From assembly GCA_964530135.1 (NCBI GenBank), contig CAZGXN010000001.1, forward strand, positions 68,110-132,109: DNA of 64,000 bases, written 5' to 3'. This DNA is from an uncultured Bdellovibrionales bacterium. GTDB lineage: Bacteria; Patescibacteriota; Minisyncoccia; Moranbacterales; UBA1568. The notes beneath the pieces are model-generated. The model saw only the letters and a program-made list of their open reading frames with translations. It made no database searches and was not told the DNA's origin. Made by a program: the position numbers and the translations under genes. Positions 40,337-57,889 of the stretch are shown piece after piece; the stretch's first letter is position 1, and every line of letters starts with the position of its first letter.

Positions 40337-41608
40337 TTAAAGTCCCTCGTAACTCCGCATCATGAGCTGGCTCTGAATATGCTTCACGAGCTCAAGTACA
40401 ACCGAGACAACGATCAAAATACTGACACCACCAATCGAAAGCGCCTGGATACCCGTCATCCCCTGCACGATGATCGGGAGTATAGCGATAACACCGAGAA
40501 AGAGCGCGCCGGTAAAGGTAATACGGGTGATGATATGGTGGAGGTACTCAGCCGTTGATATACCAGGGCGAATACCTGGCACATACCCGCCCTGCTTCTG
40601 CAAATTCTCAGAAATCTTCATCGGATCAAACACCACTGCTGTATAAAAGTATGTAAAGAGTACAACAAGTGTAAAGTAGGCAATCCCATATACCCACTGG
40701 TTCTGGAGAAAGGTGGCCACCGAAATAGCCATCTCCGCAATGCGGGCATTTGGCGACGAGGTGAAGAAATTTGCGACCATGGTCGGGATCAAGATCAACG
40801 AGACCGCAAAAATGATAGGGATCACACCGGCTTGATTCACTCGAAGCGGCAGATGTGTCGCTGATCCGCCATAGACGCTCGAACCACGCACCCGCTTTGC
40901 ATAGGCAATCGGGATCGTGCGCTGACCCTCATTGATAAAGATAACTCCCGCCACGGTAATCAGTCCGAGAGCGAAAAAGACAAGATAGGTAAAAAATTGA
41001 GATGGGTCCCAGGTTGCAAAGAGGCGCGAGGCCCCCGTCGGCAGTGCGGCTACAATACCCGCAAAAATAAGCATCGAAACGCCGTTCCCCAACCCCTTCT
41101 CTGTGATGAGTTCACCGAGCCACATGAGAAAAACCGTCCCCGCCGTCGCCGAGAGAATGATCACAACGATCGTAAACGGGGTAATATCTGCCAGGATGTT
41201 CTGTGAACGCAGCAACGAGATCATACTGAATGACTGCAGTGCTGCCAAAGGCACAGTGAGCCAGCGCGTCCACATATTGAATTTCTGCCGACCCTGCTCA
41301 CCCTCTTCTTTGTACATCTTTTCAAGCGCTGGAAAAATTGTCTGCATGAGCTGCATGATGATCGATGCCGTGATATACGGTGCCACACCGAGGAGCACGA
41401 CCGAGATGTTTGAGAGTCCGCCGCCCGAAAAAATATTCAAGAGCCCCAAGAGCGCATTGTCTTCAAACAACCGTTTGAGCTGAAATACATCCACGCCTGG
41501 GAGTGGGATATTGGCTACCAGGCGATACACCACCAGAAGCCCCACGATAAAGAGAATCTTCTTGCGAAGATCGGGGGTGCGAAGGATTTGGGAGAAAATT
41601 TCAGTCAT
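40337..41608 (-). CDS. secY: Preprotein translocase subunit SecY
   Basis: Ten TM helices with the SecY signature. A 200-bp AT-rich spacer separates it from adk. Confidence 0.92.
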   Translation of the reverse strand: MTEIFSQILRTPDLRKKILFIVGLLVVYRLVANIPLPGVDVFQLKRLFEDNALLGLLNIFSGGGLSNISVVLLGVAPYITASIIMQLMQTIFPALEKMYKEEGEQGRQKFNMWTRWLTVPLAALQSFSMISLLRSQNILADITPFTIVVIILSATAGTVFLMWLGELITEKGLGNGVSMLIFAGIVAALPTGASRLFATWDPSQFFTYLVFFALGLITVAGVIFINEGQRTIPIAYAKRVRGSSVYGGSATHLPLRVNQAGVIPIIFAVSLILIPTMVANFFTSSPNARIAEMAISVATFLQNQWVYGIAYFTLVVLFTYFYTAVVFDPMKISENLQKQGGYVPGIRPGISTAEYLHHIITRITFTGALFLGVIAILPIIVQGMTGIQALSIGGVSILIVVSVVLELVKHIQSQLMMRSYEGL

Positions 41609-41901: not shown

Positions 41902-42621
41902 TCAGAGCGCCGCGTTGCCGGGGCAGAGAACCTGGCGGTCAGCGAGCCAATCGCCAAGCTCGCCGAGCCCCCAGTCGTCGACGAACCACTGGCGGTCGTT
42001 AAAGTCCCAGCCGACACTCACGGTGAAAATTTCACCGTTTTTGCCCTCGACGTAGAAGATATTCGCGTAGCCGTTGTTGAGGAGCAAACCCGACTGGCCG
42101 CCCGGCTGTGCCTCGATCAAGGCTGCGATGTCTTCCAGCGTGGAGAGGTGGTTTTCCGGCAGTTCCTCCCTGATGTCTCGGTCGTAGGCGTTCGCTTTGA
42201 GGAGCGAGGCTACATAGGGACATGCCGGGGTCGAATCCACCGTCTGCCTGGCGTGGATGTCGAGGCGATCGGCGAAGGTGTCGTGGATGTAGAGGCCGGT
42301 GCCGGTCTGGTAGAACGCCGCCGCATTGAAGGGCTTGGTTCTCGCCGGAACGGTTGACTTGCCGACAGGCTTGAGGAGCCGGGTTTCAGCGAGTTGCGGG
42401 TAACGCGAGCTGAGCTGCTTCAGGGCATTGATGGTTGCGCGTTCGATGGCAACCTTGAGCTCGTCGCCGCGCACGATGACCAACTGGGCACCGTCCTTGT
42501 CGAGAAAAGTCGCTTGAGCGACTGCCGTTTTGGCAGCGCTTTCAGCGGCATCCGCGACGAAACGCACGATTTGCTTGTCCTGTCCTGACGTTACTTCTGA
42601 CGTGATTGGCTGAGCCATCAT
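41902..42621 (-). CDS. Hypothetical protein, GC-richer than its surroundings, inserted between rplO and secY
   Basis: RBS AAGGAG is 3 nt before the ATGATGG at 42621/42618. No recognisable domain. The gene has its own promoter and terminator. The track ORF begins at 42675. Confidence 0.55.
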   Translation of the reverse strand: MMAQPITSEVTSGQDKQIVRFVADAAESAAKTAVAQATFLDKDGAQLVIVRGDELKVAIERATINALKQLSSRYPQLAETRLLKPVGKSTVPARTKPFNAAAFYQTGTGLYIHDTFADRLDIHARQTVDSTPACPYVASLLKANAYDRDIREELPENHLSTLEDIAALIEAQPGGQSGLLLNNGYANIFYVEGKNGEIFTVSVGWDFNDRQWFVDDWGLGELGDWLADRQVLCPGNAAL

Positions 42622-42695
42622 CGTCTCCTTTGTCAAAGAAAATCCCCTGAATGCCGGGAATCGAGGCAGTCGCAAGTTTTCACTTACAACCCATA

Positions 42696-42777: not shown

Positions 42778-43212
42778 CTACTCCTCGATGATCGAACCGC
42801 CCTTCTTCAAAGTCTCGGCGGCGCTCGCCGTCATGTCGATATCCTTGCCGATGACGAGCTTCTTCGTGAGTTTACCGGTATTGACGATTTTGACACCCGC
42901 TCGGCGGACAACTTTGCCCAAAATCTTCTTCTCGACAAACGCATCGCGGGTTACTTTCTCACCATCCTGGAAATGCTTTTCGAGACGGTCAAGAGTTACC
43001 GTAAAGAGCTTCTGATAGACGGACTTGAACCCGCGCAGCTTCTTCATCCGTTCGACGAGTGATGAACGCCCACCTTCAAACAACGGATCTTTCTTCTTGC
43101 CATGTGCACCCTGGCCCTTGGTACCACGACCAGCCGTTGTGCCACGTTTGCCACCCCGACCGATGCGCTGCGTCTTCTTGCGGGGAGCGAGTTTGAGTTC
43201 GTGAATCTGCAT
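42778..43212 (-). CDS. rplO: 50S ribosomal protein L15
   Basis: MQIHELKLAPRKKTQRIGRGGKRGTTAGRG... Confidence 0.92.
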   Translation of the reverse strand: MQIHELKLAPRKKTQRIGRGGKRGTTAGRGTKGQGAHGKKKDPLFEGGRSSLVERMKKLRGFKSVYQKLFTVTLDRLEKHFQDGEKVTRDAFVEKKILGKVVRRAGVKIVNTGKLTKKLVIGKDIDMTASAAETLKKGGSIIEE

Positions 43213-43222
43213 ATTGAGTATC

Positions 43223-43810
43223 TTAGACGGAAACGGCTGTTTGCTTATCTTCTGTCTTATCCTCGATCTTCACTGCTGCCGGGTTCTCCGTTCCCCCATC
43301 TGTTTCAATACTGGTCCGAAGTTTCTGCAGCGCGAGCAAGGTCGCTTGAGCCACATTGAGGTTGTTGGAGCTACCGAGGGACTTAGCAATGATGTCTTTC
43401 GCGCCGAGGAGGTCCATGACCGCGCGCACAGCACCACCAGCGATGAGTCCACGGCCAGTTGTCGCCGGTTTCAACAATACCTTGGCACTCCCATACTTCG
43501 CCGTCACATCGTGAGCGATCGAACTCCCTGTGAGCACTACTGTAATCATATTCTTCTTCGCCGCTTGGAAAGCCTTCTGGATCGCATCCGAAACATCGCT
43601 GCCTTTGGCGACACCGACACCGACTTTACCCTTACGATTGCCGATGACGAGCGTCGCGCGGAAACGGAAGCGACGACCGCCTTTAACGACACGAGTAACA
43701 CGCGCCAGATTGAGCATCTTCTGGTCGTACTCTGGCCGTTCACGGCGCTGGCCGCGTGGTCCACCTCGCCGCGGTCGTCCACCACCCTTCATTTGTTCAT
43801 TCGTCGCCAT
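43223..43810 (-). CDS. rpsE: 30S ribosomal protein S5 (basic N-terminal extension)
   Basis: ...MLNLARVTRVVKGGRRFRFRATLVIGNRKGKVGVGVAKG... No L30 gene lies between S5 and L15. Confidence 0.92.
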   Translation of the reverse strand: MATNEQMKGGGRPRRGGPRGQRRERPEYDQKMLNLARVTRVVKGGRRFRFRATLVIGNRKGKVGVGVAKGSDVSDAIQKAFQAAKKNMITVVLTGSSIAHDVTAKYGSAKVLLKPATTGRGLIAGGAVRAVMDLLGAKDIIAKSLGSSNNLNVAQATLLALQKLRTSIETDGGTENPAAVKIEDKTEDKQTAVSV

Positions 43811-51627: not shown

Positions 51628-51744
51628 ATTCCTTGGTTCGAGGACAATTCACGGCGCATACTCGAGAAGTGGGAGATATACCTCTCGGAGTACGATATGG
51701 GACACTCGTGACCACAGACATGAAGTGTTCCGAACCAAGGAATC
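51628..51744 (-). ncRNA. Approx. 117-nt imperfect long hairpin (nested inverted repeats) immediately downstream of the rpsJ stop; candidate cis-regulatory RNA structure
   Basis: Outer arms gattccttggttcg (51628-51640) and cgaaccaaggaatc (51731-51744). Inner arms catactcgaga and tctcggagtacg. Confidence 0.4.
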
Positions 51745-52073
51745 TACATTTTAATTTCGATATCCACACCCGCTGGCAAATCGAGATTCGTGAGATTTTC
51801 GATAGTTTTCGCGTTGGGATTCAGGATGTCGATGAGACGCTTGTGGACCCGCATCTCATACTGATCGCGCGAGTTCTTATGGACGAAGGTCGAGCGATTG
51901 ACCGTCACCTTGTGAATCTCGGTTGGGAGCGGGACGGGGCCTGTGATCTCAGCACCGGTACGCTCAGCCGTTTCGACAATCTTTCGAGCTGACTGGTCGA
52001 TGACCTTGTGGTCATAGGCCTTGATCTTGATTCGAACCCGCGTCGCTACTTCTTCTTTTTTCTTGATAGCCAT
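51744..52073 (-). CDS. rpsJ: 30S ribosomal protein S10
   Basis: S10 family sequence. Confidence 0.93.
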
Positions 52074-52150: not shown

Positions 52151-53344
<1,194 letters not shown>

Positions 53345-53483
53345 ACTGTTGACTGACACCCTGATCCGTCTTTGACGAATTTTCGGTGCCCACCTTAAGT
53401 GAATAATTTATTACGAAAAATTTTCATTTTCCTGTTCCGTCCTTACCAACAGACAAAAACGGCTCAGGAAAGCGTCAATCAGG

Positions 53484-53512
53484 ATAATAGCAACCAGGGA
53501 AAATTCTGTCAA
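53484..53512 (-). promoter_or_regulatory. Putative tuf promoter on the minus strand (TTGACA-17-TATTAT)
   Basis: Minus strand reads TTGACAgaattttccctggttgcTATTAT, about 150 nt upstream of the tuf ATG. Confidence 0.45.
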
Positions 53513-53606
53513 CTCCAGCCGACTTTGCCATGCTGCCACCGAGAAAAACGGCTTATTCTTGGACCATTTTCAATCTATATTTTCCAAAAAATTGTCGAAT
53601 ATCCCA

Positions 53607-53635
53607 TTGACAGGCCTGTTCGAGCACTGTACAGT
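53607..53635 (+). promoter_or_regulatory. Putative promoter TTGACA-17-TACAGT for the plus-strand inserted gene
   Basis: ttgaca at 53607-53612 and tacagt at 53630-53635. A GGAG RBS at 53664 precedes the ATG at 53677. Confidence 0.45.
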
Positions 53636-53676
53636 GGCGGCGTATTCAACCGTATCTTACCAACTGGAGCAAAACA

Positions 53677-54170
53677 TGGCCTCACTGGAACTGCTAGGCA
53701 AGAAATATCGGCTCTACCTCAACGGCGAGCGCAGAAGAGCTACCAATCCCCTTTGGAGTGATGCTGAACTCCTTGAAGAGACCGGCCAAGAAAACTTCGT
53801 CGGCCGAGGAAATATCTCGAACCAATCCAAACAAAACAGAATCGAACAATTTATCTTTACAACAGCACCAACCACAAATGGTTACGGGCTTGGTGATGAG
53901 CTCATCCTCCGTGCTGCATTGTTCAGTGAGCTCTGTGGCGATCCGTGCGAGACGGTTTTGCACCTCCTCCAGCAAAACGCTGCCTATATCATCGACCGGC
54001 TCTGCGAAATGCACCTCCAGACCATCGAAGATGAGAAGCGACGATTCGCAACGAGCGGACAGCCTGAGTATCGGTGGCTCATCCCCGAAATCACATTCGC
54101 CCCGCTCAGCCGTGACTTTCTCGCCCGCCATCTCTACGGCCGGGTACCGCTTACATTCGCCTCCTCATAG
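53677..54170 (+). CDS. Hypothetical protein (164 aa) inserted between fusA and tuf on the opposite strand
   Basis: Promoter and RBS as above; no recognisable domain. The track ORF begins at 53559. Confidence 0.5.
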
Positions 54171-54253
54171 CCCTTGCGGCGAATCAGCATTCCACCCCCT
54201 CCCCTCACCCGGATTCTCCACGCGAGTATCCGGACTATTTTTTTCACGAGTAA

Positions 54254-54619
54254 TCAGCGTCCGAAAGCATCCTCCAACGCTTGCCGGGCCATCTTTTCAT
54301 TGGCGGTCAGTCCGTGAAAACCGACTCCCTTACCGCGCTTTTCGGTACCATCCTTCAAGCGAACAATCACATCGATACGCATGAGTTTTTCCCCTTCAAA
54401 ATCCTGCGGACCACTCAGGGTAAACTCAGCCCGCGCTCCCGGTGCTTGCTGTTCAAGATTTTTTACCAATGACTCTCGTTGAAACGGTGTCAGTTCAAAA
54501 TTGAGTGAAATACTCTCCTTCCCACGCTCTGGCGCGGCCATCACTTCCGGAGATACGGCGCCAAACGCAGCGGCACTAGCTACTGCCCCAGCAGCTTTCA
54601 AGAAATTCCGCCGACTCAT
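54254..54619 (-). CDS. Small secreted protein with a twin-arginine (Tat) signal peptide (MSRRNFLKAAGAVASAAAFGA)
   Basis: Canonical S-R-R-x-F-L-K motif plus an A-rich h-region and an AxA site. The track ORF extends to 54697. Confidence 0.55.
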   Translation of the reverse strand: MSRRNFLKAAGAVASAAAFGAVSPEVMAAPERGKESISLNFELTPFQRESLVKNLEQQAPGARAEFTLSGPQDFEGEKLMRIDVIVRLKDGTEKRGKGVGFHGLTANEKMARQALEDAFGR

Positions 54620-54749
54620 CACTTTTTGATCTTCCGGAGAAAGTTCTGGCTGATTACTTACGGCTGGAGGAACGCTCTCAAAGCCTGACATACGCATATC
54701 GTTAAGATTATCTATCTATTCCCATTATACATCTCTATGATAAAACCGG

Positions 54750-54777
54750 CTCTTTCGAGCCGGTTTCTCATTCCGCA
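54750..54777 (-). terminator. Intrinsic terminator after fusA (AACCGGCTC-gaaa-GAGCCGGTT plus T-run on the minus strand)
   Basis: Perfect 9-bp stem with a GAAA loop, then TTTTAT on the minus strand. Confidence 0.65.
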
Positions 54778-54787
54778 TTCAAAGTTC

Positions 54788-56890
54788 TTATTCCTTCGCG
54801 GTCGTACCTGCCTTGGCTCCCATAATCTCTTCGGCTACATTACGCGGCACTTCCGCATAGTGTGAGAATTCCATGGAGTAACTAGCACGGCCCTGACTCA
54901 TCGAACGCATCTGGGTCGCATAACCAAACATACTGGCAAGTGGAACCTCGGCTGTCACTTCCTTCACCCGTGCATTGCCTTCGCCACGGTCCGTCATCTC
55001 CTTGATGATGCCACGCTTGGCGTTGAGATCACCGACGATATCGCCCATGAAGCTTTCCGGCATGATGACGGAAACTTTCATGATCGGCTCAAGGATGATC
55101 GGTTTGGCGCGACGCATCGCTTCCTTGAAGGCGAGCGAGCCCGCAATCTTGAAGGCGGCTTCTGATGAGTCGACATCGTGGAAGGATCCATCATACACCG
55201 TTGCTTTCACATCCACGACGGGATAACCAGCAAGGACACCAGTATTCGTCGCTTCTTCGATACCTTTGTTGATCGGTTTGATGAATTCTTGTGGAATGAC
55301 ACCACCCTTGGTCTCGTCGAAGAATTCATAACCTTTGCCCTGCTCATTCGGCTCAAGACGGATCCAACAATGACCATACTGACCACGACCACCCGACTGA
55401 CGGACATACTTGCCTTCAGCCTGCGCCATCTCGCGAATCGTTTCACGATAGGCGACCTGCGGACGACCGACATTCACTTCGACTTTGAATTCACGGCGCA
55501 TACGGTCGACAATGATATCGAGGTGAAGTTCGCCCATACCAGAGAGAATTGTCTGACCACTGTCTTCGTCTGTATGGACACGGAAGGTTGGATCTTCTTC
55601 GGAAAGTTTCTTCAGGGCGACACCCATCTTTTCTTGATCGGCTTTGGTCTTTGGTTCAACGGCAATATCGATGACTGGTTCCGGAAAAACGATATTTTCC
55701 AAAATAATTGGCGCTTCCGGATCGCAAAGCGTATCGCCAGTCATCGTTACTTTCATACCGACGAGCGCGCCAATATCACCCGCAGTCAAATCTTCAATTT
55801 CCTCGCGATGATTGGCGTGCATCCGGACGATACGGCCAACACGCTCTTTTTCATTTTTGGTAGAGTTTAAAACATACGATCCAGCCTTCACCGTGCCAGA
55901 ATAAACACGGAAAAATGTCAGTTGGCCAACAAAAGGGTCGGTCGCCACTTTGAACGCCAGCGCCGAAAATTTTTCATTGTCGTCCGTCTTACGAATGACA
56001 TCCTGTTCAGTCTTGACATCAATGCCAGTAACGGGGGGGATATCGATAGGTGATGGGAGGTAGTCAACGACAGCATCCAGGACGAGCTGCACACCCTTAT
56101 TCCGCAGAGCGGTGCCCGTCATAACCGGATGAAGACGAACCTCGATCGTTGCCTTACGCAACGCTGCCTTGAGCTCTTCAACGGAAATTTCTTCACCCGC
56201 CAAAAACTTCTCGGTCAATGCATCATCACTCTCAGCAATTTTCTCGACCATCTTCTCGCGCCACTCTTTAGCCTTTTCAAGGTATTCGGCCGGAATTTCG
56301 CTCTCGATGATAATCTCGCCCATATCACCGTCAAAGGTGTAGGCTTTCATCTTCATGAGATCGATGAGGCCATAGAAGTCTCCACGCAAACCCAAAGGAT
56401 ACTGGATGGCGACCGCGTTCGGCGTGAGACGATTCCAAATAGAAGAGAGGGCGTCTTCAAAGACCGCGCCTTCCTTGTCGATCTTGTTAATAAAGCACAT
56501 GCGCGGCACCTTGTATTTCTCTGCCTGACGCCAAACGGTTTCAGATTGCGGCTCGACACCCTCCTTACCATCAAACACGACAACGCCTCCGTCAAGGACG
56601 CGCAGCGAGCGCTCTACCTCAACCGTAAAGTCCACATGCCCAGGGGTATCGATGATATTGATGTGGTGATCTTTCCAATAACAAGTCGTTGCAGCCGAAG
56701 TAATCGTAATACCGCGCTCGCGTTCCTGCTCCATCCAATCCATAGTCGCCTCACCCTCATGCACCTCGCCAATCTTGTGGGTGATACCCGTGTAGAACAA
56801 GATGCGCTCGGTTGTCGTTGTTTTTCCGGCATCGATATGCGCGATAATACCGATATTGCGATACTTTTCAATGGCGATTTTGCGGGGCAT
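54788..56890 (-). CDS. fusA: Elongation factor G
   Basis: [15 protein letters not shown]... Confidence 0.95.
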
Positions 56891-56982: not shown

Positions 56983-57450
56983 TTAGGCAAAGTGAGCAAA
57001 GGCCTTGTTGGCTTCCGCCATCCGATGCGTCTCATCACGCTTCTTCATGGCTGAACCAACTTTGTTTGAAGCATCGATGAGCTCGTCAGCGAGCTTCTCA
57101 GCCATCGACTTCCCCTTGCGGTTGCGACAGCTATCACGAATCCAGCGCATGGCGAGCACTTGGCGGCGTTCACTCGAAACCGGAACTGGGACTTGATAGT
57201 TGGCACCGCCGACACGCCGGCTCTTGAGCTGAAGCAGTGGGGCGACATTTTTGATCGCCTGTTCAAAAGTATTCAAGCCCGCTTTCTTGGTACGCTCGTA
57301 AATGATATCAAATGCATCGTAAATGATGCGCTCAGCGATGCTTTTCTTTCCCGCCCACATAATCATCCCGACGAAATGACCAACCAACGGATTCCCAAAA
57401 CGAGCGTCCGCCTTCCATTCTTTATCAAATTGTCGCTTTCTCCGTGGCAT
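56983..57450 (-). CDS. rpsG: 30S ribosomal protein S7
   Basis: S7 family sequence. Confidence 0.93.
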
Positions 57451-57469: not shown

Positions 57470-57889
57470 TTAGTCTTTTTTCTTCTCCTTCTTAGCTCCA
57501 TATTTAGAACGACTCTGTTTCCGTGTGTTCACACCAGCCGCATCAAAGATCCCACGGACAACATGATAACGCACCCCTGGGAGATCCTTCACGCGTCCAC
57601 CGCGAATCATGACGATTGAGTGCTCCTGGAGGTTGTGCCCTTCGCCCCCGATATAGGCGGTTACTTCCATACCGTTTGTGAGACGAACACGCGCGATCTT
57701 GCGAAGGGCTGAGTTCGGCTTCTTCGGCGTCATCGTTGTTACCTTGAGACAGACGCCCCGCTTATACGGGCTATCCGTCTTGGTGATACGGTTTTTGACG
57801 GTATTGATGACGAAGGTCATTGCGGGAGACTTCGATTTCTTCCGCGCAACTTTACGAGGGTGTTTGATGAGCTGGTTGATAGTAGCCAC
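57470..57889 (-). CDS. rpsL: 30S ribosomal protein S12
   Basis: [13 protein letters not shown]... Confidence 0.93.

Follow-up and report, generated by a model that had tools for sequence, protein, structure and literature searches.

The 1443-nucleotide (nt) spacer that separates fusA from tuf in the 64-kb stretch of DNA analysed here (the entirety of which is referred to below as 'the window') contains two convergent genes: one, on the minus strand together with the surrounding translation genes, that encodes a small protein with a predicted twin-arginine translocation (Tat) signal peptide (145 residues; 54254-54691), and a second, on the plus strand, that corresponds to an open reading frame (ORF) of 164 residues, here termed ORF164 (53676-54170). 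While the initial annotation of this locus regarded the two genes as a recently acquired pair, a comparison with related genomes led to a different explanation, which is favoured here with moderate confidence: that the spacer is an old and permissive slot, that its two genes are residents restricted to a single clade and descended from an ancestral pair through differential loss, and that the product of the Tat-signal gene is exported by the Tat pathway. Both genes are real, with native codon composition; each has kept its position in diverged lineages, and the first is under purifying selection and carries a perfect signal motif.

Occupancy of the fusA-tuf spacer among relatives

The order fusA, Tat-signal gene, tuf, with all three on the operon strand, was found in all five of the further lineages in which the surroundings of a Tat-signal homologue were read (L005/L011, L007, L012, L014 and L015), and was confirmed by a census using profile hidden Markov models (HMMs). 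The Tat-signal proteins of these lineages display 46-86% identity to that of the window, and the synonymous divergence (dS) of their fusA and tuf genes from those of the window ranges from approximately 0.8 to saturation, which indicates that they are not close strains; the fusA product itself is 82-98% identical to those of the relatives at the amino acid level. Homologues of ORF164 were found to be transcribed divergently from tuf in six of six lineages read (L016, L017, L018, L019, L020/L021 and L023), and to converge upon the end of fusA in L017, L018, L020 and L023, as well as in L016, where the last seven codons of fusA are visible. At the ORF164-homologue loci of six relatives, the profile-HMM census found no Tat-signal gene. 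The presence of the genes at this position across the clade, named in the initial annotation, alongside the presence of tatABC, as a result that would speak against acquisition, was found for each gene separately; the idea that they had been acquired as a pair was not borne out, since among the lineages read only the window carries both.

Beyond these two families, the content of the slot is variable. The Tat-signal gene stands alone in L005, L007 and L014, and is accompanied by four secreted proteins (Big_7 or of no recognised type) in L012 and by an unrelated 172-residue orphan in L015; an ORF164 homologue stands alone in six lineages; other orphans are present in the slot of L026, and polysaccharide-lyase-like secreted proteins (L022) or a membrane-anchored ORF (L024) were found upstream of tuf. 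The 172-residue protein of L015 and the orphans of L026 were tested as hidden relatives of ORF164, and rejected. The large secreted proteins of L012 (10670-15913) and L022 (114-2551) are encoded on the operon strand, and display a Big_7 Ig-like domain, a weak match to polysaccharide lyase 14 and repeated N-terminal signal-anchors.

Nucleotide similarity among the relatives ends at the -35 box of the tuf promoter and just past the stop codon of the Tat-signal gene; because it ends directly upstream of the tuf promoter, that promoter is taken to be a boundary of the slot. A stretch of 726 nt (53512-54238) has no nucleotide counterpart in those relatives that harbour only the Tat-signal gene. One of them, L005, which is without ORF164, keeps approximately 64 nt that are homologous to the convergent spacer of the window, where the terminator of ORF164 resides, and this remnant points to a deletion. 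When lineages were clustered on the basis of approximately 190 nt comprising the tuf promoter and leader, the window (both genes) was grouped with L005 and L014 (Tat-signal gene only) and with L020 (ORF164 only) in a first subclade; L007 (Tat-signal gene only) was grouped with L019 (ORF164 only) in a second; and L012 (Tat-signal gene and additional cargo) was grouped with L016 and L017 (ORF164 only) in a third. The most economical reading of this distribution is probably an ancestral convergent pair followed by the repeated loss of one partner. According to that scheme, the lineages sampled probably descend from an ancestor that had both genes; one or the other would subsequently have been lost on several occasions, while the window keeps both.

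The Tat-signal protein and ORF164

The Tat-signal protein was found to have only 12 relatives among 5.8 billion proteins, with identities to the window protein of 46-97%; NCBI describes one of these relatives, from a metagenome-assembled genome (MAG) of Candidatus Moraniibacteriota, as a Tat-signal protein. Its predicted signal peptide (54536-54691, minus strand) consists of an N-terminal extension (n-extension), the motif SRRNFLK (54596-54616; the protein contains MSRRNFLKAAGAVASAAAFGA), a hydrophobic region (h-region) and a predicted cleavage site between VMA and AP. The signal scores 26.7 bits against both the Pfam TAT_signal model PF10518 (gathering cut-off 22.7) and TIGR01409 (cut-off 16.7), and the gene is the sole ORF in the window to pass a filter for twin arginines followed by a hydrophobic stretch. 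The h-region, as read from the sequence, is uncharged and rich in alanine and glycine (AAGAVASAAAFGAV), and is followed by SPEVMA and then AP; R29, R30, F32 and L33 are nearly invariant among the aligned homologues. The description of this N-terminus as a textbook twin-arginine signal was fully upheld, given that SRRNFLK exceeds both curated cut-offs and is nearly invariant. The window protein corresponds to the signals described by PF10518 and TIGR01409 in its SRRNFLK motif, in its weakly hydrophobic, Ala/Gly-rich h-region and in its A-x-A-type site (VMA followed by A), but differs from the usual Tat signals in possessing an unusually long and conserved n-extension of 24 residues, and in preceding a cargo of approximately 93 residues that displays no cofactor signature.

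The n-extension before the twin arginines measures 24-27 residues across the family (GFE...LSPEDQxVM), and is kept in homologues that are as little as 46-55% identical. The ratio of non-synonymous divergence (dN) to dS (omega) is 0.09 in the signal region and 0.13-0.6 in the n-extension, where dN lies below dS; for the whole gene it is 0.17 relative to L005 and 0.13 relative to L012, and for the mature domain 0.10 relative to L005. Because the region of the twin arginines combines an omega of approximately 0.09 with near-invariance in the family, that motif must be translated, and because the n-extension is conserved at the protein level with dN below dS, the true start is an upstream ATG. The most likely of these is at 54691 (encoding the N-terminus MSGFE), which is the choice of gene callers in L001; an alternative ATG at 54697 would produce a protein of 147 residues. 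The possibility raised in the initial annotation, that the arginines lie within a non-translated extension, does not apply, since both the motif and the n-extension are under purifying selection. The near-invariance of SRRNFLK and its low omega argue, as a prediction from sequence, for recognition of the motif by a Tat receptor of the bacteria concerned.

A -10-like box (TATAAT; 54724-54729, minus strand) was read from the sequence approximately 27 nt upstream of the start of the Tat-signal gene, and a TAnnnT pattern is present at the aligned position after the fusA hairpin in six of six aligned lineages. The box was not called by the promoter scanner, and its role as a promoter is for that reason treated as putative; its reading as an extended -10 element was rejected on the basis of spacing.

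Two members of this family display unusual structures. On one contig of 16,163 nt, fragments of 74 and 54 residues (P0009 and P0013) were found, which suggests a frameshifted or split copy, and hence a gene in decay in one lineage. The gene of L014 (10001-10426) is a mosaic, in which the n-extension and signal differ from those of the window by a dN of 0.055 and the mature domain by a dN of 0.89, and its mature domain is without the PEVMAAPERGKE junction; the pattern suggests that recombination took place within the gene, or that its mature domain was replaced.

The structure predicted by AlphaFold2 (AF2) for the Tat-signal protein is disordered across residues 1-60, as expected for a signal peptide, and well defined across residues 61-147 (predicted local distance difference test (pLDDT) 88-96), where the mature domain of approximately 93 residues (54257-54535, minus strand) forms a beta-alpha-beta-beta-beta-alpha sandwich. 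A Foldseek search of the PDB returned alpha/beta sandwiches at E-values of 2e-4 to 2e-2, including the LptE-like protein Cj1090c, the N-terminal domain of hibernation promoting factor (HPF) and protein Y (pY), double-stranded RNA-binding domains (dsRBDs) and RAD52. The matches to hibernation factors comprised plastid pY (5mmj_y), Thermus protein Y (2ywq_A; template-modelling score (TMt) 0.56) and a Borrelia protein (8fmw_W), and were joined by a match to the dsRBD of Loqs; those of HPF type display probabilities of 0.99-1.0, TMt values of 0.44-0.56 and E-values of 4e-4 to 2e-2, and the LptE-like, RAD52 and dsRBD structures, which are unrelated folds of comparable shape, score equally. No match of the protein to Pfam S30AE (PF02482) or dsrm was found at E <= 1, and comparison by hhalign with HPF and YfiA from E. 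coli gave probabilities of 0.2-0.9%, with a short alignment that pairs their N-terminal strands and first helices. The mature domain thus appears, from its model, to bear a fold resemblance to HPF and dsRBD domains, rather than to be a member of either family. The predicted topology appears to be shared with the N-terminal domain of HPF, YfiA and protein Y and with the dsRBD, and the Tat-signal gene is surrounded by genes of translation; HPF, however, acts upon cytoplasmic ribosomes, whereas the window protein carries an export signal and a mature domain of approximately zero net charge (as counted by eye).

After the signal model, the best NCBIfam match was to TIGR02811 (E 1.9e-5), a formate dehydrogenase region Tat target that is likewise small and consists of a Tat signal and a short domain. 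Membership in that family was rejected, as the score of 24.9 bits falls below the cut-off of 48.45 and only residues 23-57, corresponding to the signal, align; no formate dehydrogenase genes were found among the neighbouring genes.

The behaviour that would follow from these features is that the Tat-signal gene is expressed from a weak -10-type promoter, from read-through of the fusA terminator, or from both; that its product most likely folds in the cytoplasm, is exported by the TatA/TatC translocase and is cleaved after VMA; and that cleavage would release an alpha/beta domain of approximately 93 residues at the cell surface.

ORF164 was characterised by its homologues, by its AF2 model and by codon statistics. 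When 1.84 billion cluster representatives were searched exhaustively with phmmer, the result was nine homologues of 109-171 residues and 29-46% identity, eight of which are full-length and one of which (109 residues) covers residues 57-162; a word-indexed search with the same query recovered the identical protein alone. The family is marked by the motifs LELxGxxYxLYLxGE, FxFxT, IDALC and PxIxFxPLSxDFL, and the AF2 model computed with the family alignment (pLDDT 86.7, predicted template-modelling score 0.79) displays an elongated antiparallel sheet of four strands and, C-terminal to it, a long helix. No significant Foldseek match to this fold was found, the best E-values being 0.26 (PDB) and 0.07 (BFVD). 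No signal peptide or transmembrane segment was apparent by eye, and the protein is on that basis predicted to be cytoplasmic. Its constraint is weak, with dN values of 0.6-0.9 and an omega of approximately 0.5 where dS is measurable.

The claim that ORF164 possesses its own promoter and ribosome binding site was confirmed (exact ORF coordinates 53676-54170, plus strand): the promoter scan identified TTGACA-17-TACAGT at 53607-53635, and a GGAG Shine-Dalgarno sequence, which can be aligned in relatives, lies at 53666-53669. A terminator, CCGGATTCTC-CACGC-GAGTATCCGG followed by ACTATTTTTTT, was read from the sequence at 54209-54244 (plus strand), in the 83-nt spacer between the convergent genes. 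A promoter of the TTGACA / TAnnGT type is aligned in five members of the family, that of the window included; GGAG precedes the start codon by 6-8 nt in seven of seven members; a GC-rich hairpin and run of T residues follow the stop codon in L016, L017, L018 and L020, as well as in the window; and a 5' untranslated sequence, GGCGTATTCAACCGTA, is common to the window and L016. Because its promoter, Shine-Dalgarno sequence and terminator are kept in relatives, ORF164 is considered to be an independent and conserved transcription unit. In L019 (248-802) and L023 (143-763), the ORF164-family gene begins so near to tuf that its -35 region coincides in part with the tuf -35 box as read on the opposite strand (CTTGTCAAG), and the two divergent promoters of these lineages would share a single palindromic element.

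Competing explanations for the slot and its genes

Several observations weigh against the interpretation of the slot as the site of an ancestral pair, one member of which is a Tat substrate. The preference for an ancestral pair over exchange depends on the clustering of a leader of approximately 190 nt and on a single 64-nt remnant; the contigs that carry ORF164 alone are mostly very short (0.9-3.9 kb); genomic context was read for approximately half of each family; and in L019 the gene beyond the ORF164 homologue is not fusA. Furthermore, neither tatA nor tatC was detected in the window or in approximately 150 kb of the relatives' flanks, which represent a fraction of a genome (tblastn with queries from E. 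coli and B. subtilis, and a search for the TatA motif); no Cys or His is conserved in the mature domain, so that there is no obvious cofactor to explain a need for Tat; and no recognisable -35 box or Shine-Dalgarno sequence precedes the Tat-signal gene in the sequence, in the alignment or in the promoter scan.

The first alternative, considered unlikely, is that the slot is a recombination hot spot, in which both gene families and the additional cargo have been swapped among related CPR (candidate phyla radiation) genomes by way of the ultra-conserved fusA and tuf flanks, with no ancestral pair. Such exchange would account for the different contents of the slot in close relatives (secreted genes in L012 and L022, orphans in L015, L024 and L026), for the interleaving of lineages that carry only one gene or only the other, for the contrast between signal and mature domain in the L014 mosaic, and for identities of only 29-46% among ORF164 homologues in genomes whose EF-G proteins are 96-98% identical. 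The last of these differences may instead reflect the weak constraint upon ORF164, as dS in the flanking genes is also near saturation, and the terminator remnant retained by L005 argues for a loss in place.

A second alternative, which is regarded as distinctly improbable, concerns the function of the signal: the twin-arginine N-terminus would then direct export through the Sec pathway or serve as a membrane anchor in a genome without TatA and TatC, or the protein would be a cytoplasmic, HPF-like translation factor. The failure to detect tatA or tatC in the regions searched, the missing cofactor signature, the resemblance of the mature fold to the N-terminal domain of HPF and protein Y, and the weak hhalign match at the first strand and helix all speak for this alternative. 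The near-invariance of S-R-R-x-F-L-K at an omega of 0.09, however, is expected of recognition by Tat and not of Sec signals; the h-region has the Ala/Gly-rich character of Tat signals; and the likeness to HPF is without sequence support, with a probability below 1% and no match to Pfam S30AE. The Moranbacteria are placed by GTDB in the Paceibacteria. The premise of the initial annotation that CPR bacteria usually lack Tat was only partly right, in that a survey of freshwater CPR reported TatA and TatC in the classes Microgenomatia, Paceibacteria and Saccharimonadia (PMC9166423), and a Saccharibacteria genome was found to contain tatBC and four predicted substrates (PMC6031116); the occurrence of Tat in related CPR classes (PMC9166423) is a further argument for a Tat signal in the window protein.

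The explanation put forward in the initial annotation, that both genes are recent foreign cargo and that the signal was left over from a donor with a Tat system in a recipient that may have none, is now very improbable. It drew upon the usual absence of Tat machinery from CPR-type genomes, and could further appeal to the failure to detect tatA and tatC in the window, to the stretch without a counterpart in Tat-only relatives and to the presence of both genes in the window alone. It is contradicted by synteny, as the Tat-signal family occupies this exact slot in five other diverged lineages and the ORF164 family in six, and by the strong purifying selection acting on the twin-arginine motif. 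The compositional comparison proposed as a check likewise gave no sign of foreign origin: relative to 45 native genes of the window, the coding log-likelihood ratio and synonymous-codon scores correspond to z-values of -0.95 and -0.06 for ORF164 and of +0.07 and -0.21 for the Tat-signal gene, and the GC content of both genes (0.52-0.54) is near that of the window (0.50). Only short flanking repeats, at the level expected by chance, were found, and no integrase genes; PHROGs and PADLOC contained no relatives of either protein, the viral contigs of IMG/VR none of either family, and phage and plasmid collections no match to ORF164. Searches of Pfam, NCBIfam, PHROGs and PADLOC with both proteins and with an ORF antisense to ORF164 returned the Tat signal only, and profile searches against PDB sequences returned nothing. 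The statement that the two genes have no recognisable homology stands as far as the families of Pfam, NCBIfam, PHROGs and PADLOC and the sequences of the PDB are concerned, and fails in that homologues of both proteins exist and form two separate small families, which searches of 5.8 billion (Tat-signal protein) and 1.8 billion (ORF164) proteins recovered in this clade alone.

Finally, the notion that ORF164 is a spurious or decaying frame, and that the real feature is a non-coding spacer or the antisense ORF (53694-54131, minus strand), is practically negligible and already contradicted: although three long ORFs overlap in this stretch, the protein belongs to no known family and its generic coding score lies approximately one standard deviation below the native mean, the plus frame scores higher than the antisense frame (+0.18 versus -0.06 bits per codon, with native 150-codon chunks at 0.35 +/- 0.13), the nine homologues (eight of them full-length) share conserved motifs, the model reaches a pLDDT of 86.7, and the Shine-Dalgarno sequence, promoter and terminator are conserved. 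The antisense ORF was accordingly rejected as the true gene on the strength of the higher score of the plus frame.

The interrupted operon and its significance

The interpretation favoured above, of an old slot with two resident genes, places them within an otherwise conventional arrangement. The gene order rpsL (57470-57889), rpsG (56983-57450), fusA (54788-56890; EF-G, 700 residues), tuf (52151-53344; EF-Tu, 397 residues from the ATG at 53344) and rpsJ (51744-52073) is kept, with every gene on the minus strand, as established from the ORF list and from the Pfam domains of the identical contig L001. The window shares this order with the canonical str operon (rpsL-rpsG-fusA-tuf), but does not display its direct passage from fusA into a co-transcribed tuf; instead, fusA is followed by a terminator, two genes intervene, and tuf has a promoter to itself. 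The break of the fusA-tuf adjacency by two convergent genes unrelated to translation, as originally described, was evident from the two ORFs found there. While insertions between translation operons are known from Gammaproteobacteria (Brandis et al. 2019, PMC6735719), those lie between operons, whereas in the window it is the str unit itself that is broken, with tuf set apart from fusA by a terminator, two additional genes and, ahead of a structured leader, a promoter dedicated to tuf; this interruption is maintained across a CPR clade.

The slot would be bounded by the fusA terminator on one side and the tuf promoter on the other, with its two genes forming separate transcription units. The upstream edge, fusA, is followed by an intrinsic-terminator-like hairpin and run of T residues (54739-54766, minus strand), identified by an inverted-repeat search and by the alignment of relatives. 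The hairpin proper (54743-54766) has a perfect 10-base-pair stem (AAACCGGCTC/GAGCCGGTTT) and a 4-nt GAAA loop, lies 22 nt past the fusA stop codon and is followed by TTTTATCAT on the minus strand. A GC-rich hairpin with a run of T residues follows fusA in six of six aligned lineages (the window, L005, L007, L012, L014 and L015), with differing stem sequences; a consensus terminator scanner made no call for it in the window. The terminator assigned to fusA in the initial annotation is present, at a position shifted by approximately 10 nt (54743-54766, rather than 54750-54777).

The other edge is the tuf promoter, TTGACA-17-TATTAT (53484-53512, minus strand; 11 of 12 consensus matches in the promoter scan), which lies 140-168 nt upstream of the tuf ATG; the separate promoter expected at approximately 150 nt upstream of that codon was recovered as described, and 11 relatives conserve both its -35 and its -10 box. 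Between promoter and start codon lies a conserved and structured 5' leader (53345-53483, minus strand), which at 84-90% identity across relatives is better conserved than any other non-coding sequence of the locus, and the 5' part of which (TTGACGCTTTCCTGAGCCGTTTTTGTCTGTT) is identical in seven of the 11 relatives. The leader folds with a free energy of -45.6 kcal/mol (z = -4.75), and contains, 15-45 nt ahead of the tuf start codon, a two-tier hairpin that, according to folds of the individual sequences, is kept with differing stem sequences in relatives. RNAalifold, applied to the whole leader, gave no supported consensus, and Rfam gave no match within 53300-54800 at either gathering thresholds or a permissive E-value. 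The leader may represent an undescribed cis-regulatory element of the clade.

Additional features of the surrounding genes were also noted. A 257-residue ORF between rplO and secY (41902-42675, minus strand; secY at 40337-41608) has native codon usage and no Pfam match, and is another interruption of the ribosomal super-operon, presumably the 'first break' implied by the initial annotation. In some relatives an extra small gene is found between rpsG and fusA, a junction at which the window has none: a DUF1653 gene in L007 (3492-3758) and L008 (74-364), and an orphan of 114 residues in L015 (7335-7679). These genes indicate that insertions are accommodated in the str locus of the clade at junctions besides that of fusA and tuf. 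Elsewhere in the window, 10 nt separate rpsE (43223-43810) from the succeeding rplO (42778-43212), with no rpmD gene (encoding L30) between them. The absence of L30 is a hallmark of CPR bacteria, and the label Candidatus Moraniibacteriota has been given to the MAGs of two relatives; on these two grounds the genome is considered to be CPR-like. The MAG that contains L012 (contig CAYLPD01, a third-party annotation (TPA) record) is labelled 'uncultured Bdellovibrionales'; because its EF-G is 96% identical to those of relatives labelled Moraniibacteriota, that label is probably wrong. A run of N residues (masked sequence, X in translation) is found at approximately 7629-7790 of L012, just upstream of fusA.

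With regard to function, neither protein could be placed in a characterised functional family. ORF164 is a weakly constrained and predicted cytoplasmic protein, the gene of which has a promoter, Shine-Dalgarno sequence and intrinsic terminator of its own and would be transcribed divergently from tuf. A bolder proposal, for which there is at most a slim chance, holds that the slot is a dedicated, highly expressed and variable site for surface or host-interaction factors of episymbiotic CPR bacteria; that the Tat-signal protein would be a conserved Tat substrate in Parcubacteria, demonstrating a working Tat pathway there, and would export a pre-folded, HPF- or dsRBD-like domain that is under diversification, as hinted at by L014; and that ORF164, with its undescribed fold, could act upon tuf expression, in view of its position divergent from the tuf promoter and leader.

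Two uncharacterised families have been found that are confined to a single CPR clade, one of which has a confidently predicted structure without a match in the PDB or among viral structures, and the variable slot and structured tuf leader are possible markers, or possible objects of regulatory study, in Moranbacteria. Current understanding would be unchanged unless a function is found for these genes; nevertheless, a tempting account of horizontal transfer has been corrected, in that the interruption of a near-universal operon can be due to genes that have long resided there and are specific to one clade. The favoured explanation leads to the testable prediction that these CPR genomes encode TatA and TatC, and provides one well-conserved candidate substrate.

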